A stretch of DNA of 64,000 bases from a virus, in the IMG/VR virus record IMGVR_UViG_3300046170_000505, one strand, 5' to 3'. Position 1 is the first letter of the stretch. Every line of letters starts with the position of its first letter. Shown here piece after piece: positions 11,301 to 43,715 of the stretch. A model generated the notes under the pieces. It made no database searches and was not told the origin of the DNA. It saw nothing but the letters and a program-made list of their open reading frames with translations. Position numbers and translations under genes: made by a program.

Positions 11301-11725
11301 ACAGGCGCAATCTTTTATCCATTGTATAGAAAGCTAATGTTAATTAGTGTTAGCCTTGACACAAATAATATTGTGTGGGAGAATGCTCAAGATAAAGAAA
11401 GTTTAAAAATAGATTTAATTAGTAAAAGTAAAAGATGAAAATACAATTAGGGATAAGAGGTAGCATAGATGCAATCAACCATATTATCATTAAACTAGAT
11501 GATCTTATGCTTGTAACTGCTGACAATTTATTTCTCACAGGAGAAGAGGGTCGAATTAAAACAGGAAAAAATTTAGTCGAATTATTAAATGCTTTATCAA
11601 AGGATCATAAAATATCTGTCGGTGAAAGTATAGCTAAAGAAATTGAAAGAGAATTAAATTTAGAAAACAAAGAATTGCAAAAATTTATTGTTGACAAGGT
11701 TTAATTTTTGCCCTACTATTAATGT

Positions 11726-12229
11726 ATGAAAAAAGAAAACGCATCCGCTTTAGCGCTTGTTTACTTACATAAGCATAACTTACTCCAAAATGGTTGGAGA
11801 TTTAATTGGCATAGTAAAAAAGTTGCTCTTGGGACTTGTAATTATAATAAGAAAAAAATTTACTTATCTAAATGGTATGTCGAGCTTAACGATAAATTAG
11901 AAGTTGTTGATACTATTTTGCATGAGATCGCTCATGCTTTAGCTTACCATCGTCATGGAAGCGCAGGTCGTGGACATGGTAAAATATGGAAATCTATTTG
12001 CAGGGAGATAGGAGCAAGACCCGAAAGGTGCAATAAGAAAAAATTAAATAAACCAAATGATCATTATAAATATGTTGACACTTGTTGCGGAACAACTTAT
12101 AAAAGACACAGATTAAGAAAACACGCTAGATATTCTTGCCCAAAATGCGGGGTTGTTTTATACAAAGGAGAGAAGGCGAAAATAGCAGATCGCGCCACAA
12201 AAGAACTATTAAATGATATATTAAGATGA
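11726..12229 (+). CDS. SprT-like Zn metalloprotease
   Basis: LGTC, TILHEIAHAL (HExxH), GHGKIWK and a C-terminal Cys knuckle; leaderless promoter TTGACA-17-TACTAT-6-ATG. Confidence 0.85.
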   Translation: MKKENASALALVYLHKHNLLQNGWRFNWHSKKVALGTCNYNKKKIYLSKWYVELNDKLEVVDTILHEIAHALAYHRHGSAGRGHGKIWKSICREIGARPERCNKKKLNKPNDHYKYVDTCCGTTYKRHRLRKHARYSCPKCGVVLYKGEKAKIADRATKELLNDILR

Positions 12230-18900: not shown

Positions 18901-20202
18901 ATGAATAAAGTACCATACATAATTAACGAAAATTCTCTCACCATCTTTTGGGAAGGTAAACCTTATACCTTACGCAAAGATCATGTCAACTTCAACCTTG
19001 CAAAGAGTGCAATCTTGGAAGCTAGATATGATGATCTAGGAGATTTGCTAGACATTGCCAAAGCAGTTGAAAATTTTGTTGAAGGAGATGTTGAAGTCAA
19101 AGACGAAGTTGTTTACTACAAAGGTCATCGTTTGCATGGTGTTGTGGTTGATAAATTGCTTGAAATGCTTCGTGCAGGAATGAAAGATTCTGCTCCTCTT
19201 GTTAATTTTATCACTAGGTTGCAAAGCAATCCATCTGCAAACTCTGTAAATGAACTTTATTCTTTTATGAGTTATAAGTCTTTGCCAAACACTCCCGAAG
19301 GTAAGATTTTGGGATACAAAGGTGTTCAATCAGATTTTTGGTCTAATACAGGCAATGCTGACACTATTGTTTTGCAAGGTCAAACCAATGAGCGCCATCA
19401 AATTTTCAACGGAGTTGGAGAAACGATTGAAGTTGCTCGTAGATGCGTAGACGATAACAAAGATCATCATTGTTCTTTTGGTCTTCACATTGGCTCATAC
19501 GATTATGCCAATAATTGGGCAGGAGAAGATGGTCGTTTACTTATCGTAGAGTTTGATCCCGAAGATGCAGTTTCAGTTCCAACCGATTGCGATTTCCAAA
19601 AACTTCGTGTTTCTAAGTATCGTGTTATTTCAGATATAACTGACACAAGAAAAGAACTCGATAAACCTGTCTATGAAGCTAACAAACCAATCTACGGATC
19701 AAACGATACTGATCTTGAAGTTGATTATGACGAAGATTATGACGATGACGAAGATTATGTCGATGAAGATGATTCTGATTTCGAGGAAGAAAGCACTCCA
19801 CAATCTTTATTCGTTGACTCTGACGAAGAACCAATCATAAATGGTTGCGGAGATGATTCGGATGATGACTATGATTTCGGTGATGCAGATGACGAACCCG
19901 AAGTTATTCTTCCCGAAGGATATGATGACCCTGCTTTTGATGGAAATGAAGGTTCGGGGCAAAACGAAGACAAAACTACATCAGATAGTCAAGACATGAT
20001 TGATTTAGCAATTAAGAATTATGTTCAAAATAAATTTGAATCGGGCATAAAGCCAACAATCAAAAATATTGCTGACCTTAAAATTTGTCGTAATAATTCT
20101 GTTCGTTGCAAAGAAATTGGATTTTTAGTTGAAAAACTTGGATTTCAAGTTGAAGATAACAATAACAAAATCTTTAGTAATCTACAAATAAATGGAATTT
20201 GA
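18901..20202 (+). CDS. rIIB: rIIB-like protein with a long acidic segment
   Basis: NPS..SV.ELY.F, G.ILGYKGV, CS.GLH.GS..YA and P.DAVSVP.D....KLRV..Y motifs. Confidence 0.85.
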   Translation: MNKVPYIINENSLTIFWEGKPYTLRKDHVNFNLAKSAILEARYDDLGDLLDIAKAVENFVEGDVEVKDEVVYYKGHRLHGVVVDKLLEMLRAGMKDSAPLVNFITRLQSNPSANSVNELYSFMSYKSLPNTPEGKILGYKGVQSDFWSNTGNADTIVLQGQTNERHQIFNGVGETIEVARRCVDDNKDHHCSFGLHIGSYDYANNWAGEDGRLLIVEFDPEDAVSVPTDCDFQKLRVSKYRVISDITDTRKELDKPVYEANKPIYGSNDTDLEVDYDEDYDDDEDYVDEDDSDFEEESTPQSLFVDSDEEPIINGCGDDSDDDYDFGDADDEPEVILPEGYDDPAFDGNEGSGQNEDKTTSDSQDMIDLAIKNYVQNKFESGIKPTIKNIADLKICRNNSVRCKEIGFLVEKLGFQVEDNNNKIFSNLQINGI

Positions 20203-23035: not shown

Positions 23036-23370
23036 TAAATGAGAAGAGGCGACTCATTAAAATAGCCTCAGTATTTTTGTTCTTTAATAGTTTAATTTTT
23101 AATTCTGCAGGCAGATCCTTATTAACCAAAGGGCTCAAACTCTGTCTGTAGAAACACTTTGGAAGGGCTTATAATCCTTCCTGTGGGTGACCGAATAAAC
23201 CTGTGATGAGCGGGTTAAGGTACGCAAATTCCCTGTGGTGGGGTAGCAGAGTCCAATCGGATGAGCTGATGACGAATACCAAGTCTAATTTGTGGTTCGA
23301 AGTAGGAACTCTATGAACTGATGTTCATCCCGAAAAGTTGAGAGTATTCAGTAGTCTCTTCCCACACTAT
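23036..23370 (+). ncRNA. Structured ncRNA of about 330 nt (possibly ROOL-like)
   Basis: ORF-free and richer in GC than its flanks. It has a 5' H-type pseudoknot, several helices with G-U pairs, a long-range TGTGGG/CCCACA pairing, its own promoter and a downstream hairpin. Confidence 0.75.
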
Positions 23371-23665: not shown

Positions 23666-23732
23666 TAAGTCGTTGAATATCAAGCACTTGCGCGAGCCCG
23701 ACCCGCATAAAGCGTTGATTGGCAACAACTTA
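23666..23732. repeat. 67-bp double-palindrome element, copy 1
   Basis: TAAGTCGTTGAATATCAAGCACTTG-17 nt-TAAAGCGTTGATTGGCAACAACTTA. Confidence 0.9.
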
Positions 23733-23798
23733 CAACAAAGTGCATTTTAATTAAACTTTTTTCTTTACAAGGTATGCGTATTGGTCTATATTGTATCT

Positions 23799-24185
23799 AT
23801 GACAGAGAGAAATCCAGGAAACAAAAAGTATAAGATTGACCACAAGAAAAAGGTCTTTGTATACAAGAACCTTCACAAAGATTGTTGGTCAGTCAAGCAA
23901 GACGGACTAGTCAAAGCACACACCGATGAGATTAATCTTTGGGACTGTGCATTTCAAGTAAATGCCAGGGGCAGACAAAAAGTTATTGATGAGCAACGCA
24001 AAAATGTTCACGCGGGCATCAATGGTTACATAGATGAACTTGATCTAGATTTACCTAATCCTGTGGAAGTAACTTACAACCCATACAAGTATGATTCTTT
24101 TGTTGACAAGGCAACCGAGTCTCCTATATACTCTATGGATAACGCAAAACTAACACACAACAAAGTAACAGCATATACAACATGA
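23799..24185 (+). CDS. Conserved phage protein (VYKNLH..CWSV...RKNVHA type), leaderless
   Basis: Start corrected to the ATG 6 nt after TTTACA-17-TATATT. Confidence 0.75.
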   Translation: MTERNPGNKKYKIDHKKKVFVYKNLHKDCWSVKQDGLVKAHTDEINLWDCAFQVNARGRQKVIDEQRKNVHAGINGYIDELDLDLPNPVEVTYNPYKYDSFVDKATESPIYSMDNAKLTHNKVTAYTT

Positions 24186-25940
24186 AATTATTAAAAGACA
24201 TTATAGATAATTGGGGTTTCGTAGACTCCAAGCAACTAAAAGAACTTGTGGAATATTTTCCATCAGTACCATTGGTTATTAAGTGGGGCATGAGAGAAAG
24301 AGAGATTTTCAAGGCTTGCGAAGTATCCAAACGCATAGAGAAAGTTGAGTCCGAATCAGACGACTATGTTCGTGAAGTTTTCATTAACGCAGGAAACTTA
24401 AAAAAGTTAAGAGAAGTATTGGGGGTAAAAGCGTGAAACAACTATTAGTTAAGATACCTATGTCACAATCTATTCAAGAAGTTATTGATTACATTTATTA
24501 TAGCGAGATGGAGGGTAGAGAGGACGAAACAGATTCGTGGTATACCACCTATAAAAGTTTATTAGAGTTAAAAGAAAAAGTATTAGATGAGGAGGATATG
24601 ACATGAGAAGTTGGGAAGAAAGAGACATAGTTGATATATTAAAAGAGCGACATGGCGAATTGAATAAAGCGTCAGTTGAGTTATCCGAAGGTGGCGATCA
24701 TGAAGGCTCAGATGCAATTGATGATGACCTTTTAATTATCGAAGATTTTTTAGAGAAACAATTCAGTGTCAAGTGGTACGGCACACAATTCCTCAGAATA
24801 CCAATCAAAGGATAAACATGAATAAATTAATGGAAGCACACAAAAGAAAACTATCGCCTGAGTCATCAATTGTCGCAGCAATCAATGGAATTGCAGATGA
24901 ACTATATGAGTTGAGAAAAGAGAACAGAGATCTTCAAGGCGAATTAAAAAACATAGCGGGGTCTCTCGATTATGTTAGTCAATACCTCTACGACATTAGT
25001 TGGGAGCTAAAGAAAAACAGAGAAAAAAGTATTGACAAAGAAGTTCAACTAAGTTAGATTTATATTATGACAGAAAAAACAATAGTAGCAGACACACCCG
25101 AAGCGATAGACCGATTCCGATTGGTAGCTCTTAAAGGAGCGTTAAAGATGGAGGTTCTTGGTATGACAAGACGAGGTCAATCAGTCTATTCAATCGTAAA
25201 ACAAGAGTTCGGATTTAAAGGCAACAAGGTATCCGTACTAAAACAACTAGAACAAAAAATTAAGGAGATTATTTAAAATGACTAAAGCACAAATCGAATC
25301 AAGAGTAGAAGGTTGGAATTGGAACATGAACATCTTTGAGATATACGATGAACTCAGAGACGGGCATACGGGAGAACAACAAGAGCAACTTTTAACTTTT
25401 GCTTATAATTATTTCAATAAAGATTCAGCTATCGCAGATTTAGCATGTCACTTCGGCATCACTATTGAAACAGACGAAGACTCACCAATCCCTTGCTAAG
25501 ATGAGAATAGAAGAAAGAATGATAGATTATGCCCAAAAGTGGTATGAAGTAAACGACCTAGAGACAGAGAAAAAGAACGGAAACGATCTTTATCTTCGAG
25601 TCAATGACAATGTATTTACTGAAGTCTCACACTGCGACATCAGACAAAAAGCCATGCTATGGTTAGAATCAGAATTAGAAGGAGTAAACAATTATTAAAA
25701 TGAACAATTACATAGAAGGAGTTTGCATCGGAAGTCCAATTGACTTACCCGAATACGATGAACAAGCAGAGCAATGGAAACTATGGTTTGAAGAGTCCGA
25801 GACCCCATACCACCCATACGACGAATTGCTTAGGGAGAACATTAATTTTCCTGATCTAATTTCTTATAGTTGTGACTCAGCCGAAGAGGCTTGCGAGCTT
25901 TACAACTATTACAACCAAAACCCTGTAACAAAGGACGCCA

Positions 25941-26171
25941 ATGAAACTACTAACTAAAATTCTTAACGCAGTTAAACCAAAGTACAAGCTTGTTTACCGT
26001 ACAGCTAACGGAGCAACTGCAATGTATACAATCACCAAGCCAAAACACAAAGGCGAGTTCGGCAACATGACCGAAGGCAAAGATGTTGTCGGCTTTAAAT
26101 CTTGGTGCTTTAATCGAAATGGATTTAGGTCTTTTCGTTATGATCGCATCGTAAGCCTAATAAAGGGATAA
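25941..26171 (+). CDS. WYL-like small protein
   Basis: C-terminal FRSFRYDRI motif. Confidence 0.45.
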   Translation: MKLLTKILNAVKPKYKLVYRTANGATAMYTITKPKHKGEFGNMTEGKDVVGFKSWCFNRNGFRSFRYDRIVSLIKG

Positions 26172-26341
26172 TTATTATGACACTACAACAAAAACTAAGG
26201 GCTCTCGGGCACCAATTGGCTGAGGCAGAACTATACGGGTTTAACATCCCTCAACCTCTAGACGCGAAGCATTACTACATGCTTAATAAGTTTTACAAAT
26301 TCAAAACTCGCAAATAGCAAATAACCTTTCCTCCACTACTA

Positions 26342-26382
26342 GCCCCGTCTTTGGTTGAGTTATGCCAAGGACGGGGTTTTTT
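26342..26382 (+). terminator. Rho-independent terminator
   Basis: GCCCCGTCTTTGG...CCAAGGACGGGGT stem followed by a T-run. Confidence 0.75.
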
Positions 26383-26383
26383 A

Positions 26384-26450
26384 TAAAGTACTGAGCATCA
26401 ACAACTTACGCGGGCCTGGGCCGCCTAAGCCCTTGATTACCAAGGACTTA
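26384..26450. repeat. 67-bp double-palindrome element, copy 2
   Basis: TAAAGTACTGAGCATCAACAACTTA-CGCGGGCCTGGGCCGCC-TAAGCCCTTGATTACCAAGGACTTA. Confidence 0.9.
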
Positions 26451-26463
26451 GGGGCTTTAAGGG

Positions 26464-26775
26464 TTAAGACCTCTCTAAGCTCATTTGATTGAGGGATTGA
26501 AAGCAGAAAGCGTTACTGGCAGGAGTATCCTCGCCATACTTTTCAGCATAATCAACCCAAGACACGGCAGTCTTTCCATGATCTTTTTCGCACTCAGCTT
26601 TTGCGACTGCTTTGACTGCATCCGCAACTTGTTTTGATCCGAGAATATCGTGACCTTCGGCAAGTGAGAGAATGACTTGACCTACATATCTGTTGAGGTC
26701 TTCTATGCTATATGCATTTTTTCCGATTTTCATTCTTACTGCTGATTCGAGTAGTTCTTGTGGTAGTAGTGACAT
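26464..26775 (-). CDS. Hypothetical protein, single inverted cassette between copies 2 and 3
   Basis: 103-aa ORF with an AAGGA ribosome-binding site; TTGACA on the - strand at 26838-26843. Confidence 0.75.
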   Translation of the reverse strand: MSLLPQELLESAVRMKIGKNAYSIEDLNRYVGQVILSLAEGHDILGSKQVADAVKAVAKAECEKDHGKTAVSWVDYAEKYGEDTPASNAFCFQSLNQMSLERS

Positions 26776-26869
26776 ATTTTTCCTTTTGTTAGTGTTGTTA
26801 TTTAATTATTCCTAATATTAAGGCATATATTAGCCCGTGTCAACGATTTTTTTTATTTTTTTTATTACA

Positions 26870-26936
26870 TAAGTCGCTGCCATTCAACGACTTACAACGC
26901 TTCCCCCCGCGCAAGTCCTTGATATACAAGCACTTA
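26870..26936. repeat. 67-bp double-palindrome element, copy 3 (divergent spacer)
   Basis: TAAGTCGCTGCCATTCAACGACTTA-CAACGCTTCCCCCCGCG-CAAGTCCTTGATATACAAGCACTTA. Confidence 0.85.
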
Positions 26937-27002
26937 CAACAAAAGCACATTTTATTAAACTTTTTTCTTTACAAAGTACAAAAATTAGCTTACTATGTAT
27001 AT

Positions 27003-27122
27003 ATGAAAGTGAGAGAGATAAAGATAAGAAAAACAATCCTTTTTACAAAGGCTCGCCCATTCAAAATGAAGAATAAAATTTTAGACAGAAAAACAAAACA
27101 CAAAAAACAATATGAATATTAA
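27003..27122 (+). CDS. 39-aa highly basic peptide, leaderless
   Basis: ATG 6 nt after TTTACA-17-TACTAT; MKVREIKIRKTILFTKARPFKMKNKILDRKTKHKKQYEY. Confidence 0.6.
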   Translation: MKVREIKIRKTILFTKARPFKMKNKILDRKTKHKKQYEY

Positions 27123-27395
27123 AAAAGAATTCTCTCCCTCAGATCGCCCAAGTGCTATTGATGCTATGGATCATGGCATGAGCTACATTTGGGAAAACTT
27201 TATCGAGCCACGCATCAAAGATGGCGGGATTGAAGAAATTGATCTTGACTTGCTTGCCCAACTAGGTCTTATCTTTAAAGACATTGCAGAAAAAGCCGAG
27301 GCATACTATGCTATGGAAGAAAAAAAGTTTACCGATTCCCATAATTATTTAAATTAACTATTGACAGAAAACCTAAATTATATATTATTAAAGCT

Positions 27396-28271
27396 ATGAA
27401 TAACACAGAAAACAATCAAGTCGTTCCCACTAACAGAGTTAACCTTCACATCATGGGCGGTAATCGTTCTATTGTCGATTACGGAGATGTGGTAAATGTC
27501 GTGACTCCTCCTGTCAGTTACAGAGAGAAGCCAAACAAGAGAACAGGTGAGTTCTCTGTTTCTCATCAACCAATCCCACATCACGATTTAGTGGATCGCA
27601 CTAAGGGGTTTCTAGAAACAGGTGGATTCACTATTCATGACGAGCTTCATTCGCTTGCTCGTGATGGCAACCATTATTTTGGTTTGTTCTCCGTTGATCA
27701 TCCTAATCGCAAACCATCCGAAAGAGGTTGCGTTATTGGTCTACGCAATTCTCACGACAAGACATTTCCTGCGGGTTTGTGTGCAGGTGATGCTCCTTTT
27801 GTTTGTGATAATCTCATCTTTACCAATACCATCAAGTTGTCTCGCAGACATACTTGCAACATTGAGAAAGACCTTAACTTCACTATCAATCGTGCATTGG
27901 GTAAGTTGTTCGATTTTTGGATCGGTCAAGATAATCGCATCGAGGCTTATCAAAACTTTGAGCTTACCAATTCTCAAGCCAATGATCTTATCATCAACGC
28001 TTGTAAAGCAGGTGCTTGTGCAAAGTCTAAGGTAATGGATATTGTGGATCAATGGGAATCTTCCGATCATCCCGAATTTTGGGATCGCAACGCTAATTCC
28101 CTTTACAATGCTTTTACCGAGGTTTACAAAGGTAATCTTGTAGCTTTGCCTAAAAGATCAGAGGCTCTTCATTCTGTTCTTGACTCTGTTGTCGATTTCA
28201 GAATGGACAATTTTTTAACTGCCGAACCCATTGAAAGGGCGGTAGTTGAAGGCGAAATAGTTTCTGTCTAA
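27396..28271 (+). CDS. DUF932/DUF945-family protein
   Basis: PIPH, GLRNSHDK, FVCDNL and RRHT motifs; leaderless TTGACA promoter at 27361. Confidence 0.8.
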   Translation: MNNTENNQVVPTNRVNLHIMGGNRSIVDYGDVVNVVTPPVSYREKPNKRTGEFSVSHQPIPHHDLVDRTKGFLETGGFTIHDELHSLARDGNHYFGLFSVDHPNRKPSERGCVIGLRNSHDKTFPAGLCAGDAPFVCDNLIFTNTIKLSRRHTCNIEKDLNFTINRALGKLFDFWIGQDNRIEAYQNFELTNSQANDLIINACKAGACAKSKVMDIVDQWESSDHPEFWDRNANSLYNAFTEVYKGNLVALPKRSEALHSVLDSVVDFRMDNFLTAEPIERAVVEGEIVSV

Positions 28272-28292
28272 ATAAGGATCAGCCCATCCTTA

Positions 28293-28318
28293 GCCCCCTC
28301 TTCGGAGGGGGTTTTTTT
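28293..28318 (+). terminator. Rho-independent terminator
   Basis: GCCCCCTC-TTCG-GAGGGGGT-TTTTTT. Confidence 0.9.
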
Positions 28319-28335
28319 GTGCCCTTTTATTTACG

Positions 28336-28402
28336 CAACTCGTTGGTAATCAACGACTTGCGCGGGCCAGGCCCGCGTAAGTACTTGCAGTTCAACTACT
28401 TA
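28336..28402. repeat. 67-bp double-palindrome element, copy 4
   Basis: The spacer CGCGGGCC-A-GGCCCGCG is itself a perfect inverted repeat. Confidence 0.9.
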
Positions 28403-28468
28403 CGACAAAGTGCAATTTAATCGATCTTTTTTCTTTACAAGATACTAGTTTTGTGGCATAGTATACTT

Positions 28469-28675
28469 ATGAAAGAAACAGTAAAAGTATTAATGTCCCG
28501 TGATGGTTTAACCCAAGCTGAGGCGGTAAAACAAGTAAAAGATTTCTTTCTTGCAATGCAAGAAGATATCCAAAGCGGAGGAGATCCTTTTTCCTGGGAA
28601 AACGATTTTGTTCAAGAGTTTGGTCTTGAGCCTGACTACTTTGAAGATTTTATTTTTTCGCTTGCAGTTATTTAA
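28469..28675 (+). CDS. Small acidic phage protein (LM.RDG.T..EA...FGLEPDY type), leaderless
   Basis: Start corrected to the ATG 6 nt after TTTACA-17-CATAGT. Confidence 0.7.
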   Translation: MKETVKVLMSRDGLTQAEAVKQVKDFFLAMQEDIQSGGDPFSWENDFVQEFGLEPDYFEDFIFSLAVI

Positions 28676-28696
28676 CAATTCAACTATTATTCTTTT

Positions 28697-29434
28697 ATGA
28701 TTAAGCAAACATTACTCACTTCAGGCAACGCTAAAATTACTAAGGGCGAAGCATTCGGATATTTAACAAAAGGCATTCATTTAGCTCCCGCCAATTTGTC
28801 AGGCTACGAAGTTTGCCGTTGGCGTTCAAAAGGTTGCACTATGGCTTGTCTCAACACGGCAGGTCGTGGACAAATGAATTCCGTTCAAGATTCACGCATT
28901 GCTAAGACAAAGTTATTCTTTGAGCAAAGATTTGACTTTCTTTCAAAACTATCAAAAGAAATTACTTCCACGATAAAGTCAGCAAGCAAAAAGAGCTTGC
29001 AAGCGGTGTTTCGTCCTAACCTTACAAGCGATATCGCATGGGAAGATATTGTCAATGAAGATGGAGTGAATTTGTTTGAGAAGCATAACTCAATTCAATT
29101 TTATGATTATACTAAATCATTTAAGAGAATGTGTTCTTTCCTTAACAAACCTTTCATTAAGGGTGAGTCAAAGTTTCCTTCAAATTATCACTTAACTTTT
29201 TCTTGCTCAGAACATAACGAAGAAAAATGCAAAATGGTTCTTTCAATGGGTGGCAATGTCGCTGTAGTCTTTCGCAACGAATTACCTAAAACTTGGAACG
29301 GGTACGAGGTTGTCAATGGTGATGAATCGGACTTGCGTTTCCTAGACAAAAAAGGTGTCGTTGTTGGGCTTATCGAAAAAGGTCTTGCTAAAAAAGACTT
29401 GACGGGATTCGTTAAAGAAGGTATAAATTCATAA
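28697..29434 (+). CDS. GP88-like phage protein (Cys-cluster enzyme-like)
   Basis: C....GC...CL..AGRG, R.N.TSDI.WE, FYDYTK, NYHLTFS and GD..DLRFLD motifs. Confidence 0.75.
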   Translation: MIKQTLLTSGNAKITKGEAFGYLTKGIHLAPANLSGYEVCRWRSKGCTMACLNTAGRGQMNSVQDSRIAKTKLFFEQRFDFLSKLSKEITSTIKSASKKSLQAVFRPNLTSDIAWEDIVNEDGVNLFEKHNSIQFYDYTKSFKRMCSFLNKPFIKGESKFPSNYHLTFSCSEHNEEKCKMVLSMGGNVAVVFRNELPKTWNGYEVVNGDESDLRFLDKKGVVVGLIEKGLAKKDLTGFVKEGINS

Positions 29435-29684
29435 TGGACTATTACGATTCAGCCGAAAACATTGGGATAACGCAAGATCGTGCTTTGCAAGAATTAGCAA
29501 GCCACGGGATTACATCTAACGAGGATATTATAGAATTCTTCAAGGATATGGGTGAGCATGAAGAATATGATGCTCAAGAAGTTTTGATTTGGTTAGGGTA
29601 TTAATTGCCCATTTTTAACGCGGGCATCAAATACGCAAAACTTTTCGCCCAGGCTAGCCCCAGGAAGAAAAACTTTTAACCCCG

Positions 29685-29751
29685 TAAGTCGCTGACTGTC
29701 AACGACTTGCGCGGGCCTAGGCCGCGTAAGTGCCTGATATACAACAACTTG
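29685..29751. repeat. 67-bp double-palindrome element, copy 5
   Basis: Same 25-17-25 architecture. Confidence 0.9.
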
Positions 29752-29817
29752 TGACAATCTGCAAAAAAACTTAACTTTTTTCTTTACATGATAGGTTATT
29801 TATGCGATATTATAACC

Positions 29818-30024
29818 ATGAAACATACAGGAAACTCAATCAGAAAAGTCATTAAACAACTGAAGAAATGCGTGGACATCACAAGCATTCAAAGAACTGC
29901 AAACGGATATATGATCTGTGCCAAGAATGGCGAACAGAATCTTATCCATGAAGGCTCAAACTGCTACCACCCACTTCGCAGATGGCTCAAAACTAACACA
30001 TCACTAAAAACACTAAAATTCTAA
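29818..30024 (+). CDS. Small basic protein (possibly HicA-like fold), leaderless
   Basis: Start corrected to the ATG after TTTACA-17-GATATT; the fold call is tentative. Confidence 0.55.
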   Translation: MKHTGNSIRKVIKQLKKCVDITSIQRTANGYMICAKNGEQNLIHEGSNCYHPLRRWLKTNTSLKTLKF

Positions 30025-30207
30025 TGATTACTATATCTCGCAACCAAAACTTCAGGGAATGGCTAAACATCACAATGTTCGGCAAACTCGTGGACAATGT
30101 AAAAAGCTCGGCACGAGCATATCATGTCGCCCAAAGGCTTCAAATTGAACATAAACAAAAAACTGGAGAAAAAGTCATAATCATTCAAAAAAATTAAATT
30201 TATATAT

Positions 30208-30310
30208 GTCCCCGCGTTCTATTTGATCTGCAAATCAGAGGAGATGAGAGAAATTTAGATTGCAGTCTTAATTAAACTCTTGCAGGTTCGACTCCTGCCG
30301 CGACAGGGAC
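30208..30310 (+). ncRNA. tRNA-like element or degenerate tRNA
   Basis: Perfect T-arm GCAGG-TTCGACT-CCTGC and a closing GTCCC/GGGAC + CGCG/CGCG stem; no D-arm and no CCA. Confidence 0.45.
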
Positions 30311-30320
30311 ACGCCTTTAG

Positions 30321-30387
30321 TAAGTCTTTGGTAACCAACGACTTACGCGGGCCTGGACCGCCTAAGTACTTGATAGTCAACAACTTA
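30321..30387. repeat. 67-bp double-palindrome element, copy 6
   Basis: Same 25-17-25 architecture. Confidence 0.9.
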
Positions 30388-30495
30388 CAAAAAAGTGCGT
30401 TTTTATTGTATTTTTTTCTTGCAACTTTTTATAAATTACCTTATTGTCTTATACATGATCAGGTTTATCTAAATTAACTTAAAAACATATATAAC

Positions 30496-31494
30496 ATGAA
30501 AGTACAAACTACAAACAAAACTAAAAAAGCATCAAAACTATCTTTTGCTAGAAAACTTGGCAGATCAAAAGCTAAGATGGCTACAAAGTTAAGTGAAAGC
30601 GAAAAGATTGAGACTCAAGACTTTTTTGAAGAAAACTTCGTGAAAGATGATTACGAGTATTTACCCGTAACCTTTACTAGTGAAGATTTACCTTTGATAG
30701 AATACATGAAGTCTTCAGAGATAAACTCCAATAACAGACAAAAGGTTGCGGATAATGTTGCAAGATTATTTCGTTGTCTTAAAGCGGGCATATGGTATCA
30801 AGAAAATCTAGATATCCATGTAGCTAAAGAAGGTCACTTAATGAATGGACAACACACATTAGAGGCTGTAGCTCAATTTTTCTTGGATGCAAACACACCA
30901 AGTGGTTCTGAAGTACCAATCGGATTTAAGATTGGTTGCAATGAAGATGCAATGCCTTATTTGGACACCCAAAAGAAAAGAACCCCTGAGCAAAACCTTA
31001 TGATCGAAAATGTTTTACTTAACCCTACTCAAAAAGCTATTGTTTTAATTGAGGGAAAAAGAGTTATACATGGTAAGCCTTTTGGTTATAGTGGTCAAGT
31101 CAATTACTTTGAGTACGAAGATATCATTGAAGACAATAAAAGCATATTAACGGATGTCTTTAAAGACAGAGTCTTATCTAGAGATTTCCCACATAAATCT
31201 ATAGGCTATGCTTTGTTCTTGCTTGCAAAAGAGAATCAAGAATTAGCAGAAGATATCATGAATGAGATTTGTGATTCTCATAGCATGGAAAACAGGGGAA
31301 AGTCTTTCGCTGATCCAAAACAACTCGAAGAGCATTTGTTAGTCGAAATGTACAGAAGAGAAAAAAGGGATAAAATAGACACAATGAGTAGCAAGACTAA
31401 CAGAGATTGCTACCGCCAAGAAGAATTCTTTCCTATTGCGGTTGATTGGTTAGTCTCAAACCATAACATTGACAGAAAGGTTTTCAAAGCATGA
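30496..31494 (+). CDS. ParB/DGQHR-like N-terminal domain protein
   Basis: NNR...V......L..G.W....I.....G.LMNGQHTL.A motif. Confidence 0.55.
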   Translation: MKVQTTNKTKKASKLSFARKLGRSKAKMATKLSESEKIETQDFFEENFVKDDYEYLPVTFTSEDLPLIEYMKSSEINSNNRQKVADNVARLFRCLKAGIWYQENLDIHVAKEGHLMNGQHTLEAVAQFFLDANTPSGSEVPIGFKIGCNEDAMPYLDTQKKRTPEQNLMIENVLLNPTQKAIVLIEGKRVIHGKPFGYSGQVNYFEYEDIIEDNKSILTDVFKDRVLSRDFPHKSIGYALFLLAKENQELAEDIMNEICDSHSMENRGKSFADPKQLEEHLLVEMYRREKRDKIDTMSSKTNRDCYRQEEFFPIAVDWLVSNHNIDRKVFKA

Positions 31495-31836
31495 GCCACT
31501 ACATAAAGAAAGCAATTAACTCGTATCAAGAGCTAGCGTTCTACATTGGTAAGACTAGGTTATGCCCAATAACCCAAAGGGCTAATCCAAAGAATCAATC
31601 AGTATCTGACTTTGCAAAAAATGGTCAAATGTATTGGAAAACTATAATGCACATTGATGACCATAAATTGCATCCTGAGTTCGGGGAGTCATTCTTAATT
31701 AATTGTTTTAGAGATAAACTTAGCCACTTAGTCTTACTCAACAAAGACATACCTCACGCTATGGCATTAGTTTATGACAAAAAATCAGAGTCGCTCATAG
31801 ATAAGCTTTTTAAAGAGTTATCTTAACTTAATCGCG

Positions 31837-31903
31837 TAAGTCATTGATAGTCAGTGGCTTACGCGGGCCAGGGCCGCGTAAGTACTTGCGGGTCAACAAC
31901 TTA
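31837..31903. repeat. 67-bp double-palindrome element, copy 7
   Basis: Same 25-17-25 architecture. Confidence 0.9.
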
Positions 31904-31969
31904 CAACATAATGTAAAAAAACTTAACTTTTTTCTTGCGTTAATTAACTACATATGCGATAGTATTATC

Positions 31970-32332
31970 ATGATAGCAAAACAACAATTACTTAACTTCG
32001 ACAATCTCGCTTTCCATACTCATCCTTCTTGCGACAACGCAGTTATGGCTCAACTAAACATGGGCGACATAACTATTTCAGTTGTAGCAAACATTGCTAA
32101 TGGGGATAGTCTTTATGGTCATCTTGACGATGACGAGTACGAAGTTGCAATGTGGAAAAAAGGAAGTGCAGACATGATTCCTCTTGGTGTTGGAGACGAT
32201 GTCCTTGCAAGGCAAACTCCCGCTCAAGTCAGCAAGCTCATGAGAGACGCTCAACTTGACGGAGATGCTTGGGTTGATCTTCTCAGAAAGTTAAGAAAAG
32301 ACTTTCGTGACGACTTAGGACTTGACGACTAA
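31970..32332 (+). CDS. Conserved phage protein (ISVV...SLYG....YEVAM type), leaderless
   Basis: Start corrected to the ATG after TTGCGT-17-GATAGT; the longer N-terminus in the track translates the repeat. Confidence 0.7.
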   Translation: MIAKQQLLNFDNLAFHTHPSCDNAVMAQLNMGDITISVVANIANGDSLYGHLDDDEYEVAMWKKGSADMIPLGVGDDVLARQTPAQVSKLMRDAQLDGDAWVDLLRKLRKDFRDDLGLDD

Positions 32333-32968: not shown

Positions 32969-33035
32969 TAAGTCGTTGATATTCAACGACTTGCGCGGGC
33001 CTGGCCGCCCTAAGTGCTTGGCACTCAAGGACTTA
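32969..33035. repeat. 67-bp double-palindrome element, copy 8 (where + and - gene blocks converge)
   Basis: TAAGTCGTTGATATTCAACGACTTG-17 nt-TAAGTGCTTGGCACTCAAGGACTTA. Confidence 0.9.
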
Positions 33036-33040
33036 CGCGA

Positions 33041-33373
33041 TTAAATGAGATCGTAGTATTGTGGAGAGGTATCGACCTTATGGCTTATGGTGTCAATCTC
33101 CAATTCCACTCCAGCGAGCTGTTTCTTAGCTTCGTCTATTAATTCTTTTGGAGGGATTATTGGAAATCCATTTTTGCCCCATGCTTCCACCGATTCGATT
33201 TGGTCAAAGTATCCGACGATATGAGTTTCTGAAACTTGATCGCCATAAAGGGATTCGGTCTCATCTCTCCAAAAAGAGCAGGTCAGGATCATCTCAGAGA
33301 TTTCAGCGTTATCAATCGAAACGAAGAAAAGATCTTCGCTTGTATCTATATCATCAATGTTTATTTTATTCAT
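33041..33373 (-). CDS. Acidic hypothetical protein, cassette gene
   Basis: Stop codon 5 nt from copy 8; TTGACA on the - strand at 33402-33407. Confidence 0.7.
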   Translation of the reverse strand: MNKINIDDIDTSEDLFFVSIDNAEISEMILTCSFWRDETESLYGDQVSETHIVGYFDQIESVEAWGKNGFPIIPPKELIDEAKKQLAGVELEIDTISHKVDTSPQYYDLI

Positions 33374-33437
33374 ACCTTAATATCGCTTATATTTTGGCTT
33401 ATGTCAAACTTTTTGTTTGTTATTTTGAAAGTTTACA

Positions 33438-33504
33438 TAAACTATTGATATTCAACGACTTACGCGGGCCTGGCCGCCATAAGCGGCTGATAGCCAAAGA
33501 CTTA
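33438..33504. repeat. 67-bp double-palindrome element, copy 9
   Basis: Its terminal TTA is the TAA stop of ORF 33502..33738. Confidence 0.9.
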
Positions 33505-33738
33505 CGACAAATCCATTACAAGCTCGTCTAATCGTGGGTAGTCAAGCCCACTATCATTCCAGGCTACCCCATCAGGAGTTTGATAGCCTATTGAGCTATC
33601 ACCTGAAACCTCTCTTAACGAGTCAACAAAGACATCGTAAGAAGTGCAGTCTTTAGCAAAGCTGTAAAGACCTTCGTCGTTTTGTATCCATAATGCCACG
33701 TTCCAGGTGGCTCGATTTTTCCAGCCGTTATAGCTCAT
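33502..33738 (-). CDS. Conserved phage protein (YNGW.N.ATWNVALWI.NDE type)
   Basis: Characteristic N-terminal motif. Confidence 0.75.
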   Translation of the reverse strand: MSYNGWKNRATWNVALWIQNDEGLYSFAKDCTSYDVFVDSLREVSGDSSIGYQTPDGVAWNDSGLDYPRLDELVMDLS

Positions 33739-33864: not shown

Positions 33865-34050
33865 TTAAGCGAATGCAAGCCAAAGAGCAAGGGCGTCGAT
33901 TTGCTCTTGAACGAGTTCCTTTTCTTGTTCTGCGTTGATGATTAGTTGTTGAGAGCGAATGCAACCTTCGTTTGCGATATCAGACTCTAGGTCGATAATT
34001 TGCTGAAGCTCGTTAATTCTGTCGAATAGGTTTCTAATTTTTTCTTTCAT
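33865..34050 (-). CDS. Small coiled-coil protein, leaderless
   Basis: TTTACA-17-TACTTT-6-ATG on the - strand. Confidence 0.65.
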   Translation of the reverse strand: MKEKIRNLFDRINELQQIIDLESDIANEGCIRSQQLIINAEQEKELVQEQIDALALWLAFA

Positions 34051-34177
34051 AAGTATAAAGTACCATAGTAAGTAAAGCTTGTAAAGTAAATTCGCACTTT
34101 TTTTGCAATTAATTGAAATACGGGCAAATAAGTTTTACCCCAGGCGGGCATCGATGCACAAAACTTTTAGTTTTTTG

Positions 34178-34244
34178 TAAGTCATTGCGTATCAACGACT
34201 TACGCGGGCCTGGGCCGCCTAAGCGGCTGATATTCAACGAGTTA
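34178..34244. repeat. 67-bp double-palindrome element, copy 10
   Basis: Contains the TGA stop of ORF 34234..34434. Confidence 0.9.
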
Positions 34245-34434
34245 GGGAATCTTTTTCGAAAGCGTCAATCATTTGACTCCACTCCCAGAGGTTGCCGTCT
34301 GGATCTTCGTAAAAGCTATACCCAGATTTGGCGTGAGTCAGGATGTGCGAAAATCCTATATTTTCCGCCCAGGCCTGAAAGTCAGCGTCGCGTTTTTCTT
34401 CGTCTAATTGGTCTTGTGTTATTGTTATCTTCAT
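34234..34434 (-). CDS. Small acidic protein, leaderless cassette gene
   Basis: TTGACT-17-TACATT-5-ATG. Confidence 0.7.
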   Translation of the reverse strand: MKITITQDQLDEEKRDADFQAWAENIGFSHILTHAKSGYSFYEDPDGNLWEWSQMIDAFEKDSLTR

Positions 34435-34496
34435 ACCCTAATGTACCTCTATCCTGGGCGAAAGTCAAGAAAAGATTTTACTTTTTTATCTTTCCG

Positions 34497-34563
34497 TAAA
34501 CCCTTGCGTATCAACGACTTACGCGGGCTTGGGCTCCATAAGCCCTTGATTGTCAAGAACTTA
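34497..34563. repeat. 67-bp double-palindrome element, copy 11
   Basis: Contains the TGA stop of the ORF ending at 34553. Confidence 0.9.
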
Positions 34564-34753
34564 GGGGAACAAACACATCGGGCTTACGATCCTCTGGCAA
34601 TGGCCAGCCTTTGAATTCCTCGCCATCGAGGTCTTCGAGCCTGAACATGATGCCCTCGAGCATTTCCTCAAGCTGAGCATTTTTTTTCTCCAGATCAACG
34701 ATCCTGCTGAGCAGGAGCTGACTCGTGTGTGTGTATATTTTATTTTCTATCAT
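34553..34753 (-). CDS. Small hypothetical protein, leaderless cassette gene
   Basis: Start corrected to 34753: TTGACT-17-TACTAT-6-ATG. Confidence 0.65.
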   Translation of the reverse strand: MIENKIYTHTSQLLLSRIVDLEKKNAQLEEMLEGIMFRLEDLDGEEFKGWPLPEDRKPDVFVPLSS

Positions 34754-34818
34754 ACCCTTATAGTACGACAGAATTTTGCTCAAGTCAAACTTTTTTTGAA
34801 TTATTTTGCAAGTTTTTC

Positions 34819-34885
34819 TAAGCCGTTGTGTATCAACGACTTACGCGGGCCTGGCCGCCATAAGCGGCTGATACTCAACGACTTA
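34819..34885. repeat. 67-bp double-palindrome element, copy 12
   Basis: Same 25-17-25 architecture. Confidence 0.9.
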
Positions 34886-34887
34886 TG

Positions 34888-35127
34888 CTAAAAGTCGTAT
34901 TGGTCATGATAGCCATAGTCATAATCCTGATATCGGTCAAAGCTGGGCTCTTCATGGTTACGGTGTACTTCTGACATCTCAGCAGGCTCGTCGCTATTCC
35001 TGACATCAGTGAGTATTTTCTCAAGACGAGCAAGACGGGCAAGCTCTTTTTCACGAGCTTCAAACTCGACATCAGTGATGCCGTTGGCGTGGGCGAGGCG
35101 AGTGAGAGAATCATTTTCATTTTCCAT
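34888..35127 (-). CDS. Small acidic protein, leaderless cassette gene
   Basis: TTGACA-17-TATGTT-6-ATG supports this frame over 34875..35162. Confidence 0.7.
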   Translation of the reverse strand: MENENDSLTRLAHANGITDVEFEAREKELARLARLEKILTDVRNSDEPAEMSEVHRNHEEPSFDRYQDYDYGYHDQYDF

Positions 35128-35237
35128 ATATATAACATAAAGGCATTGCTAACCTGTGTCAAATCAATTCAACAATAAACGAAATTGGACCAAATAAAAG
35201 GCTTGCGGGCCTCAGCTTAGACATACGATATTTTTCG

Positions 35238-35304
35238 TAAGTCATTGTATATCAACGACTTACGCGGGCCTGGCCGCTATAAGCGGCTGATAGTCAACGA
35301 CTTA
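35238..35304. repeat. 67-bp double-palindrome element, copy 13
   Basis: Its terminal TTA is the stop of ORF 35302..35454. Confidence 0.9.
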
Positions 35305-35458: not shown

Positions 35459-35653
35459 TTAGTCAACTAAGATTAAAGGTTTGGGTAGTGGAGTGTGGGC
35501 GAGATAAGCCTCCAACTCATTAACCTCCGATTGTGCTATCCTATCAAGATCGGCTTGAGCCGCGACGCACTGCATCATAGCTGAACCTGAGCCATTACTT
35601 GCGGCTTCTAGGTTGTCATTAATTATTTGTTGTAATCTTTGTTTTTCTGTCAT
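35459..35653 (-). CDS. Small hypothetical protein, leaderless
   Basis: TTGCAA-17-TAGTTT-6-ATG. Confidence 0.65.
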   Translation of the reverse strand: MTEKQRLQQIINDNLEAASNGSGSAMMQCVAAQADLDRIAQSEVNELEAYLAHTPLPKPLILVD

Positions 35654-35719
35654 AAGTATAAACTAAGGGAATTTTTGTTGAATTGCAATCTTTTTTTTCA
35701 ACTATTTTGCAGGTTTTCT

Positions 35720-35786
35720 TAAGCCGTTGCGTACCAACGACTTACGCGGGCCTGGCCGCCATAAGCGGCTGATAGTCAACGACTTA
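35720..35786. repeat. 67-bp double-palindrome element, copy 14
   Basis: Its terminal TTA is the stop of ORF 35784..36098. Confidence 0.9.
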
Positions 35787-36098
35787 GAAGATTAAAGGTA
35801 AGTCATTGTTTGCGTGTGACATGACGCAAAACCAATCGCTTGGATTTATTGCGTTGCCGTTAAGCATGGGTACGAAGTCTTTTTGATATACCCCCAAGCC
35901 TGTTATGCCGTTGACTCTTTCCCTAGTGGTAGGGGTATTCCAACCTGCAAGCGAAGCTTTAATTAACCCGCTAGAGTCACGCTTCACAATGGCGTTGCCA
36001 TGTAGCCAAACGGTTTGCCCGTCTGTCTCGGTGTTGCCGACTTTTTTAGATTTGCCTTGTTCAAAGGCTTGTTTAATTTGTTGTGTCACTTTTCTCAT
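35784..36098 (-). CDS. Conserved phage protein (MRK.T....AF..G....GNT...LHGN.I...T.TT.ER.N type)
   Basis: Characteristic motif pattern. Confidence 0.7.
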   Translation of the reverse strand: MRKVTQQIKQAFEQGKSKKVGNTETDGQTVWLHGNAIVKRDSSGLIKASLAGWNTPTTRERVNGITGLGVYQKDFVPMLNGNAINPSDWFCVMSHANNDLPLIF

Positions 36099-36152: not shown

Positions 36153-36497
36153 TCATGGATGCACCCCATGGTCTAAGAGTTGAACTGCCTCGTAAACCGA
36201 GCATTTGAGATCATCGCAGATATCTGCGAGTTTTTCCTCTCTTGCTTCGGCACGAGATTGACGATAACGGGTTACCTTGCAAAAGCGAGGATCTGCCTCT
36301 GCACCTGCCATCTCTTTAAGTTCGGAGAAAAGATCCCAAGAAACAATTCCTTGTTTGCAAAAGTTGTATGCACACTGCTTGCGTGATACCCCCTGAATGT
36401 CGAAGATGTGCCGTGCCATCTTATCGTTGAAAACGCTCAAGCTCGCTTGAATCAGCTTGTCTGAGATTTTTGAGAATGTTATATGTATTAGTTTCAT
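36153..36497 (-). CDS. Hypothetical protein, leaderless
   Basis: TTGACA-17-GATAGT-6-ATG. Confidence 0.65.
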   Translation of the reverse strand: MKLIHITFSKISDKLIQASLSVFNDKMARHIFDIQGVSRKQCAYNFCKQGIVSWDLFSELKEMAGAEADPRFCKVTRYRQSRAEAREEKLADICDDLKCSVYEAVQLLDHGVHP

Positions 36498-36573
36498 AAT
36501 TATACTATCGCATATGCAGTGCCTTCTGTCAAGCTATTTGAAAATTTTCTTTGAATTATTTTGCTTATTTCTG

Positions 36574-36640
36574 TAAGTTGTTGTTTATCAACGACTTACG
36601 CAGGCCAGGCTCGCCTAACCCCTTGACTATCAAGGATTTA
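36574..36640. repeat. 67-bp double-palindrome element, copy 15
   Basis: TAAGTTGTTGTTTATCAACGACTTA-CGCAGGCCAGGCTCGCC-TAACCCCTTGACTATCAAGGATTTA. Confidence 0.85.
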
Positions 36641-42992: not shown

Positions 42993-43715
42993 ATGGGACG
43001 TAAAAAATCTACCCCTGACATAGAGTCAATCGCAGAAAATTCCTTAAGATCTAAAATAATAGTAAAAGGAAAAGAATTAACAGAAAAACAAAAGACTTTT
43101 TTAAAAATTGCATGCGACAAAGAAACAAGTGTTATGTTTGTAAACGGACCTGCGGGTTCGACAAAAACTTATATGGCAGTTTTTGCTGCACTAAGGCTTT
43201 TGCAAAAAAACTATGACCTTGACCTACTTTATGTAAGAAGCGTGATAGAAAGCGCGGATAAAGGCTTAGGAGCCTTGCCAGGGACTCTTGAGGAAAAGTT
43301 TAATCCTTACATGGCTCCCCTCGAAGACAAACTGACAGAATTGTTACCCAAAACAAGTACGGTAAAAAGTGACCTATTAGATTCTGGGAGAATACAGGCT
43401 ATGCCAATAAACTTTTTAAGAGGGGCAAATTGGATAGATAAAATTGTAGTAGCTGATGAATCTCAAAATTTCACATTCAAAGAATTGACCACCCTAATAA
43501 CCAGAATTGGAGAAAATAGTAAGTTATTTATTTGTGGTGACATTATGCAAAGCGACATCAATGGAAGAAGTGGCTTTAAAGATATGATTAATTTATTCAA
43601 AGATTCAGAAAGTAAATCCAAAGGAATACATTATTTTCAATTTAATGAAGATGATATCTTTAGAAGTGAGATACTTAAGTATATAATAAAGAAACTTAAA
43701 ACTTGTAATAATTAA
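42993..43715 (+). CDS. phoH: PhoH-like ATPase
   Basis: GPAGSTKT, LGALPG, FLRG, DESQN, TRIGENSK and GD..QSD motifs. Confidence 0.93.
   Translation: MGRKKSTPDIESIAENSLRSKIIVKGKELTEKQKTFLKIACDKETSVMFVNGPAGSTKTYMAVFAALRLLQKNYDLDLLYVRSVIESADKGLGALPGTLEEKFNPYMAPLEDKLTELLPKTSTVKSDLLDSGRIQAMPINFLRGANWIDKIVVADESQNFTFKELTTLITRIGENSKLFICGDIMQSDINGRSGFKDMINLFKDSESKSKGIHYFQFNEDDIFRSEILKYIIKKLKTCNN

Follow-up and report, generated by a model that had tools for sequence, protein, structure and literature searches.

The stretch of DNA analysed in this study (64,000 nucleotides, IMG/VR virus record IMGVR_UViG_3300046170_000505; hereafter the window) is part of a large uncultured phage. It encodes rIIA (16446-18746), rIIB (18901-20202) and a large terminase (47903-49777), the last with solely distant matches at 22-28% identity, and no similar DNA was found among 50,697 phage records by megablast and blastn of the region. 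A complete relative of 200,094 bp is present in IMG/VR. Between 23.6 and 36.7 kb the window carries small genes, the majority of them without a family match, and 15 copies of a 67-bp repeat, here called the element, stand between the transcription units. Up to 32.9 kb these genes are on the + strand, and from 33.0 kb onwards they are on the - strand, so that a + and a - cluster of cassettes converge where the strand flips. In the window and its relatives, the element was found to stand at quantised distances upstream of leaderless promoters, most strictly of those with a degenerate -35 box, and the 11-bp word of which it is built recurs before gene clusters of a cultured phage.

The element consists of four 11-bp words, TCAACGACTTA, arranged as two 25-bp dyads that lie 42 bp apart with a GC-rich centre between them; each dyad reads TAAG-N4-TGA, three free bases and TCAACGACTTA. 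Relatives were collected by two IMG/VR pattern scans, which gave 42 loci on approximately 33 contigs, none identical to the window. A hidden Markov model (HMM) built from the 15 window copies recovered 216 element copies in the related contigs, 176 of which are exactly 67 bp long. Among 157 unique copies, the columns TAA, TG, CAA and TT(A/G) show little or no variation. Words 2 and 4 hardly differ between copies, and words 1 and 3 do so at the four bases of their interior. At these varying columns, Watson-Crick pairs did not exceed the shuffled expectation, either for local hairpins or for one long hairpin. A stem model of the four words, in RNA or in DNA, was rejected on this lack of compensatory change, and because the word variation is uncompensated, recognition of the double-stranded words by a protein is the more plausible reading. 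The excess of A-C over G-T mismatches needs no selection, since it is set by which half-site varies. In these and the following statistics unique sequences were treated as independent, and the copies are phylogenetically related.

The centre of the element is 88% GC amid DNA of 35% GC and is mostly 17 nt long (range 15-25). It occurs in 142 different sequences, which are homogeneous within a genome and differ between genomes (for example, window 34844-34860 and loci L004, L016 and L023 of the relatives), a pattern that suggests concerted evolution of the copies in each phage. The centre is self-complementary (824 paired cells vs 679 in shuffles) and folds at -6.6 kcal/mol vs -5.2 kcal/mol for composition-matched shuffles. 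Whole elements also fold well, with z down to -5.9, and the better-folding strand is the same genomic strand whichever way transcription runs.

On the + strand, six copies are followed by a promoter whose -35 hexamer lies exactly 31 bp beyond the end of the element, as the initial annotation had stated. Copy 1 (23666-23732), two 25-bp dyads around a GC-rich 17-mer, stands after a terminator-like hairpin with a T-run and is followed by the module 23733-23801, in which a spacer ending in TTTTTTC leads to TTTACA at 23764, N17, TATATT, 6 nt and a leaderless ATG at 23799. The same order with 31 bp, N17 and 6 nt is found after copy 3 (26870-26936; module 26937-27005, TTTACA at 26968, TACTAT, ATG at 27003), copy 4 (28336-28402; module 28403-28471, TTTACA at 28434, CATAGT, ATG at 28469), copy 5 (29685-29751; module 29752-29820, TTTACA at 29783, GATATT, ATG at 29818) and copy 7 (31837-31903; module 31904-31972, TTGCGT at 31935, GATAGT, ATG at 31970), the -10 boxes after copies 4, 5 and 7 being TG-extended. 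After copy 6 (30321-30387; module 30388-30472), TTGCAA at 30419, N17 and TATTGT are followed by 7 nt and an ATG at 30455. This ATG opens a mini-ORF (open reading frame) of five codons (30455-30472, +), and the gene of 332 codons that comes next, at 30496, has no visible Shine-Dalgarno sequence. Four of these six promoters were also recovered in an independent consensus scan. The four TTTACA, one TTGCAA and one TTGCGT hexamers were as annotated, and before each of them an A/T-tract was confirmed, (A)ACTTTTTTC or TTTTTTTC, which is a T-tract ending in C.

Nearly all recognisable sigma-70-type promoters of the window share a rigid layout of -35, N17, -10, 5-7 nt and the first gene's ATG. Promoters close to the consensus (at least five of six positions in the -35 box) before an ORF-starting ATG were found 14 times at 6 nt, three times at 7 nt and twice at 5 nt, vs about 0.5 for every other offset, and this rigidity makes the -35 calls reliable. 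With an ATG 5-7 nt past the -10 box, the first genes are therefore leaderless; internal genes, in contrast, carry Shine-Dalgarno sequences. The leaderless design recurs in the approximately 33 related contigs and in at least one module of the cultured phage described below. Ten promoters of this layout in the window have no element (-35 starts at 296, 6281, 11691, 13440, 15679, 21538, 22761, 25032, 27361 and 32322), and they use TTGACA nine times and TTGACG once; one that serves for comparison is 25032-25069 (+; TTGACA-N17-TAGATT-6 nt-ATG), and further examples are 296-331, 6281-6318 and 11691-11728. The proposal that a canonical -35 goes with the absence of an element was thus borne out, TTGAC(A/G) being present in 10/10 element-free and 0/6 element-adjoining + strand promoters (Fisher p = 1.2e-4, a value that overstates independence because the six promoters are homologous copies). 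A "pre-early" character of the element class, which had been suggested, is not favoured: element-free TTGACA promoters fill the first 23 kb, and the elements begin only afterwards. A delayed-early class that requires a factor would be the more natural reading.

Across the relatives, promoters were called by a simple rule that demands a leaderless ATG, so that promoters led by a Shine-Dalgarno sequence near elements are missed. By this rule, a leaderless promoter adjoins 137 of 210 element copies. Promoters of the + strand type, defined as T5-8C followed by TTG(C/T)nn or TTTACA (family A), comprise 39 unique sequences, and their distance to the element is 30 or 31 bp save for one at 29 and one at 27 bp. 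When identical sequences were not collapsed, an element lay within 45 bp of 43 of 46 family A promoters in the window and relatives, 42 of them at 29-31 bp and one at 27 bp. The TTGAC-type leaderless promoters behave differently, 112 of 179 having no element within 150 bp (Fisher p = 3.5e-17 for the difference in coupling, uncorrected for relatedness). TTTTTTC-TTG is invariant in family A; within the -35 box only TTG or TTT is conserved, and the last three positions carry 0.4-1.2 bits, as in a sub-optimal core element. TTTACA is peculiar to the window genome, and the trait of the class is that only TTG survives. Between orthologous cassettes the spacing is kept while the -35 box drifts among TTTACA, TTGCGT, TTGTGC and TTGCTA, and the T-tract lengthens from T6 to T8 by substitution with the gap unchanged. 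The separate promoter class that had been proposed therefore exists as the T-tract, weak -35 class of family A.

The spacer is itself conserved. Across related cassettes it holds 1.3 bits per position, as much as the element and the -10 box and nearly twice the interval from the -35 box to the -10 box, with blocks of ACAA adjoining the element, TGCA, a TTAATT-like sequence in the middle and TTTTTTC directly before the -35 box. The six identical 31-bp gaps are for this reason better read as one copied module of approximately 135 bp than as independent placements.

On the - strand, the gaps of 30, 28, 30, 31, 41 and 26 bp, together with two of 75 and 92 bp, were all reproduced. Here the weak -35 of the proposed class fails, as - strand neighbours of the element carry TTGACA or TTGACT. 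These promoters belong to family B, in which an A-tract precedes TTGACT or TTGACA. Its modules in the window are 33371-33437 at copy 9 (33438-33504; 30-bp A-tract spacer, TTGACA at 33407, GATATT, 5 nt, ATG at 33373), 34432-34496 at copy 11 (34497-34563; 28-bp spacer, TTGACT at 34468, TACATT, 5 nt, ATG at 34434), 34751-34818 at copy 12 (34819-34885; 30-bp A-tract spacer, TTGACT at 34788, TACTAT, 6 nt, ATG at 34753), 35651-35719 at copy 14 (35720-35786; 31-bp A-tract spacer, TTGCAA at 35688, TAGTTT, 6 nt, ATG at 35653) and 36495-36573 at copy 15, the last of the array (36574-36640; 41-bp A-tract spacer, TTGACA at 36532, TG-extended GATAGT, 6 nt, ATG at 36497), all with N17 between the boxes. The promoter 26 bp from copy 3 (26815-26843, -; TTGACA-N17-TAATAT) serves the gene 26775-26464, which is Shine-Dalgarno-led and not leaderless; it is divergent from the + strand promoter on the other side of this copy, whose centre is the most degenerate. 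The two distant promoters are 34048-34085 (-), 92 bp from copy 10 (34178-34244), with TTTACA at 34085, N17, TACTTT, 6 nt and ATG at 34050, and 35125-35162 (-), 75 bp from copy 13 (35238-35304), with TTGACA at 35162, N17, TATGTT, 6 nt and ATG at 35127. Several - strand cassette ORFs stop inside elements (33502, 34234, 34553, 34875, 35302 and 35784), the stop being the TAA or TGA of the outer 11-mer, 0 or 8 nt into the element; at copy 9 the upstream ORF thus receives its stop codon from the end of the element.

The gaps of family B have peaks at 16-18, 28-31 and 39-41 bp with few in between. Their best period is 11-11.5 bp (Rayleigh R = 0.61; 0/5000 random sets were as high), and one pair of orthologous promoters differs in gap (29 vs 40 bp) by one 11-bp A-tract unit. 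UP-like tracts abut the -35 box in both families, as a T-tract in family A and an A-tract in family B, and in the 40-bp spacers A-tracts recur every 10-11 bp. In an UP element proper, an A/T-rich tract at about -38 to -59 is contacted by the C-terminal domain of the alpha subunit. The helical phasing claimed by the initial annotation is therefore supported by the distances of about 17, 30 and 40 bp, and the exact 31 bp is a trait of a conserved spacer in one module. In line with its bidirectional reading, 11 of the 197 elements with enough flanking sequence have promoters on both sides; 91 stand between a gene end and a promoter, 19 are enclosed by two convergent gene ends and lack a promoter, and the other 76 have partial or unresolved contexts. 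The element is promoter-associated, not promoter-exclusive. A fixed orientation of the element relative to promoters was not upheld, the HMM orientation calls being mixed in the relatives. In the window, copy 2 (26384-26450), directly 3' of an intrinsic terminator (26341-26378) and facing the 3' end of a - strand gene, and copy 8 (32969-33035), where the two cassette clusters meet, have a promoter on neither side.

The 11-mer was found, through a text search, in the cultured T4-like Stenotrophomonas phage DLP6 (KU682439.2). In this genome TCAACGACTTA occurs 24 times, vs 0 times in the control, and most occurrences form direct pairs with a spacing of 25 bp before gene clusters (for example, KU682439.2 45312-45347, 74441-74476 and 143405-143440), with a strand bias of 21 vs 3. 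The proximal word is followed in many copies by a GC hairpin, and then by TTTACT (10/14), N16 and TATAAT or TATACT. The gaps between word and -35 box are 10-12 bp (n = 4), 21-22 bp (n = 8) and 32 bp (n = 2), with R = 0.95 at a period of 10.5 bp. Moreover, 54 nt separate the word end from the -10 box both in the window (31+6+17) and in the 32-bp class of DLP6 (32+6+16). The two systems are alike in the identical word 5' of gene clusters, the GC hairpin, a weak -35 (TTTACT in DLP6), a good -10 and helix-phased gaps; they differ in that DLP6 has direct repeats with the GC hairpin between word and -35 box, whereas the window has two inverted pairs with the GC block at the centre. Direct pairs of the DLP6 type were found in three IMG/VR contigs only, one of them a GC-rich DLP6-like module and two a coding repeat. 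In the paper on DLP6, a repeated motif occurring in pairs is given as "phage promoters" predicted by PHIRE, with no mechanism given (Peters et al. 2017, PMC5349666), and this motif appears to be the TCAACGACTTA word. Almost no proteins are common to the window phage group and DLP6, and a search for a small shared candidate that might bind the word gave one weak 59-amino-acid match alone. Since the grammar is shared and the proteins are almost unshared, a factor outside the phage genomes, that is, a host factor, is favoured over a shared phage factor.

We favour, with a probability of about one in two, an explanation in which the element serves a portable early-promoter module as its upstream platform, and a protein bound there would assist RNA polymerase from one helical face. 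In the proposed module of about 135 bp, the 67-bp element would come after the stop codon or terminator with which the upstream cassette ends; next would be an A/T-rich, UP-like spacer of 30-31 bp and a sigma-70-type core promoter, and the ATG would lie at the transcription start, giving a leaderless mRNA. The four words and the GC centre would together form a double-stranded DNA binding platform, in which the dyads, four turns apart and clamped by a GC block that does not melt, would present a CAA-N4-TTR word at each outward end; because such a word faces outward at both ends, promoters may use either side of the element. In the main spacing class, the promoter-proximal word would end at about -67. 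Promoters with a consensus -35 would tolerate several in-phase distances (about 17, 30 and 40 bp) or no element, and the T-tract class, whose -35 is reduced to TTG or TTT and whose element is nearly always at 30-31 bp, probably needs the element for full activity.

The protein on the words may be a DNA-bending protein of the host of the integration host factor (IHF) type, or another factor. The invariant skeleton of the word, TCAA-N4-TT(A/G), contains the columns CAA, TT and R, which are the core of the 13-bp IHF consensus WATCAANNNNTTR used in published work. Full matches to WATCAANNNNTTR number 26 in the window vs 9.4 expected, and 16 lie in the 1 kb that the elements occupy; at least one full match is present in 13/15 window copies and in 118/157 unique copies. 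No HU/IHF-family protein is encoded by five relatives, one of them complete, so that any IHF-like factor would be the host's. Within the favoured mechanism, IHF or a close relative is a tentative candidate, to which we give somewhat less than an even chance. Several features of the words speak against IHF specifically. The N4 is CGAC, nearly invariant, in two of the four words, which is more conservation than IHF requires. The inverted words overlap 14 bp apart and the direct words are 25 bp apart, so that a protein of IHF size, with a footprint of approximately 35 bp, cannot occupy all of them. Furthermore, the inner words are flanked by 88% GC, where IHF sites, which are single, asymmetric and free in N4, have an A/T-rich 5' flank.

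Other observations weigh against the platform mechanism as a whole. No leaderless promoter was detectable near 73 of the 210 copies, 3 of the 46 family A promoters have no element, and the 19 elements between convergent gene ends have no promoter to assist. Off-phase or large gaps occur in this phage group, at 33-37 bp and 57-148 bp (33, 34, 35, 37 and 77 bp among them), and one of 5 bp at locus L094. In addition, the fixed spacing could be inherited with the copied module without any functional constraint. The last point is the basis of an alternative that we consider unlikely but of some weight, in which the element is only a boundary or linker between cassettes, such as a terminator-like or insulating hairpin or a recombination linker, with no effect on initiation, and the constant 31 bp results solely from joint copying of element, spacer and promoter. 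Such a linker would agree with the position of most copies after a gene end, with the - strand ORFs that stop inside the element and with the promoterless copies at convergent ends, and it would also account for a spacer as conserved as the element and for a centre whose self-complementarity persists through 142 sequences in an element that folds as a long hairpin. The elements are, moreover, limited to one cassette region of 8-13 kb in a genome of 200 kb (8 kb in the complete relative, 13 kb for the window array), and the promoter-early stem-loop cassettes of T4-type phages, discussed below, are assembled from the same building blocks. No T-run follows the element, however, and canonical terminators stand separately before copies 2 and 4 (26341-26378 and 28292-28313). 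The four words show no compensatory change, the strand that folds better is independent of the direction of transcription, and the eleven elements between divergent promoters have a gene end on neither side. A linker also leaves unexplained the peaks at 17, 30 and 40 bp and those of DLP6 at 11, 22 and 32 bp with a weak -35.

A phage dimer or tetramer bound to the dyads could instead act as a global shut-off, repressing all cassette promoters at a set time. The presence of the same element beside strong consensus promoters and weak ones, its restriction to one early-gene region and a dyad symmetry with a 42-bp, four-turn repeat suited to a dimer of dimers are all compatible with an operator, as is a centre that is uniform within a genome and different between genomes, as expected from co-evolution with a phage protein. 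We nevertheless regard this as quite improbable. The element never overlaps a core promoter, and the class most strictly tied to it is the one with the weak -35, which fits help better than hindrance. Furthermore, no DNA-binding domain was found in the approximately 30 cassette proteins searched, and no small protein is clearly common to the phage group and DLP6.

The T-tract/TTGC class might also be read by a modified or phage-specified polymerase, for instance through a phage sigma-70-family protein, with the element incidental. A divergent member of this family is indeed encoded at 44652-45401 (+; 21.6 bits on Sigma70_r2, its orthologues in relatives exceeding the Pfam cut-off), and TTTTTTC-TTG is invariant with the rest of the -35 free. 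However, the class shares its -10 box, 17-bp spacing, TTG and leaderless start with the TTGACA promoters, and the 93% coupling to the element would have no explanation. The sigma gene has packaging and structural genes as neighbours, as is usual for late sigmas. It is next to genes for PhoH and a weakly GAF-like protein (42993-43715 and 43718-44341), upstream of the terminase. MotA and AsiA were not found in a search without positive control, in which the controls were silent, and this absence is weak evidence. A polymerase-based explanation appears very improbable. The same low standing is given to an RNA-level element, in which a read-through transcript hairpin is cut in the manner of RNase III or shields 3' ends: the - strand cluster without terminators between its cassettes, its well-folding transcribed strand (-36.8 kcal/mol, z = -5.9, with G-U pairs) and the strand bias of the DLP6 words are what it would predict, but the strand that folds better in the + cluster is the one not transcribed, terminators stand upstream of the element there, and the long stems lack covariation with pairing below expectation. 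The constant better-folding strand and the terminators before the copies make an RNA role in the + cluster unlikely.

The closest described systems are the promoter-early stem-loop (PeSL) cassettes of T4-type phages (Arbiol et al. 2010, PMC2839356; Comeau et al. 2014, PMC4122927). Both are small composite units between small genes of no known function in a plastic region, and in both a stop codon, an A/T-rich stretch and a sigma-70-like early promoter come in this order together with a G/C-rich stem-loop. They differ in that the unit described here has a fixed 67-bp sequence of four 11-mers at 30-31 (or about 17 or 40) bp from the -35 box, whereas the PeSL stem-loop varies in sequence and position; that the -35 is degenerate in one class here and agrees with the consensus in PeSL promoters; and that a PeSL ends 3' with a Shine-Dalgarno sequence and a start codon, whereas here the ATG follows the -10 box by 5-7 nt in a leaderless arrangement. 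Terminator activity and mini-circles have been shown for PeSLs (PMC2839356, PMC4122927), and the present units are known from sequence. The stem-loop of a PeSL, inside or beside the promoter, ends transcription arriving from upstream; the self-complementary GC centre of the element is located 56-72 bp upstream of the -35 box, has no T-run and, in the + cluster, comes after separate terminators. PeSLs cluster upstream of ORFans, and recombination among their copies reshuffles the cassettes; similar clustering is evident in the window and in the complete relative, where the elements lie beside small ORFs that mostly cannot be annotated. The layout and setting were therefore already known from PeSLs, and the DLP6 motif had been published solely as a predicted promoter logo; what is new is the comparative coupling and phasing, the correspondence between the word and the IHF core, and the finding of the word in a cultured phage.

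Factor-assisted sigma-70 promoters include lac, a class I promoter activated by CAP whose -35 is TTTACA, and the IHF-stimulated promoters lambda pL and Mu Pe. The modules described here resemble them in a sub-optimal -35 with a putative protein site above an UP region, in a presumed dependence on the helix face and in the IHF-consensus match, and are distinguished by four words per element, a conserved CGAC as N4, a GC clamp and a unit that recurs at 15 or more promoters within a single genome. The OB sites of KorB in IncP plasmids and the C1 operators of phage P1 are repressor sites for a known protein; like them, the element is one palindromic site at many transcription units of one replicon in several distance classes, and it differs in that the predicted sites here never overlap core promoters.

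Exact matches to the 25-bp dyad were counted in 185,579 species genomes, where 12 loci were found vs an estimated expectation of about 0.1. Three of these loci lie in two phage-like contigs binned with Cellvibrionales and Enterobacterales metagenome-assembled genomes (MAGs). Element arrays were seen on phage-like contigs of gammaproteobacterial MAGs (G011 C4, 210,818 bp, with a Cellvibrionales label; G012 C152 and C176; G119 C177), and this binning is a weak hint at the host. In Akkermansia (L052, L053, L055, L057-L067), 8-11 dispersed chromosomal dyad sites per genome were found with up to three mismatches, and Fibrobacter (L048, L050, L054, L068-L070) has 2-4 dispersed sites per genome; single matches occur in two Bacteroidota MAGs, one of them labelled Terrimonas. 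The dyad was absent from 118 of the 121 Gammaproteobacteria and 78 of the 81 Verrucomicrobiota genomes sampled, and on these samples it was rejected as a general chromosomal motif of either group. The bacterial sites appear to be intergenic; in three genomes one is located upstream of argS, several are beside other palindromes and one adjoins a sigma-54-type TGGCAC-N5-TTGCA.

It is a speculative and rather doubtful possibility that TCAACGACTTA is the word of a cellular DNA-binding or DNA-bending protein, IHF-like or new, recruited separately by unrelated phages as a portable, helix-phased enhancer for early promoters with poor -35 boxes and also used as a site in Akkermansia and Fibrobacter. 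If so, it would represent a widespread unrecognised regulatory code common to phages and bacteria. Should the factor prove to be the host's IHF or a relative, these phages would hard-wire an architectural protein of the host into a whole class of early promoters, and if it is a new protein, the word offers a handle for finding it. Very little is known of how large uncultured phages control their early genes. A compact promoter grammar is now defined for dozens of related phage genomes, in which the 11-mer word is combined with a GC clamp, a spacer that is phased and UP-like, a degenerate -35 and a start without leader. Such a grammar should make it easier to annotate phage contigs from metagenomes, both their transcription units and their leaderless genes, and the same word in the cultured pair of DLP6 and Stenotrophomonas maltophilia makes the hypothesis testable at the bench.

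Further annotations were made in and near the cassette region. The 332-amino-acid protein encoded at 30496-31494, which contains NGQHT, was considered as ParB-like and rejected, since neither Pfam nor PDB sequences supported it, and 30210-30305 was likewise rejected as tRNA-like, being unsupported by ARAGORN and Rfam. Family matches were obtained for the cassette genes at 23799-24185, which is served by the module of copy 1 (mycobacteriophage L5 gp82-like), 27396-28271 (DUF932), 28697-29434 (GP88), 33502-33738 (DUF7249) and 35784-36098 (Kyanoviridae Gp96). Shortly 5' of element copy 1, a manA RNA motif (Rfam RF01745) is present at 23161-23370 (+), with 81 bits vs a gathering score of 55.2.

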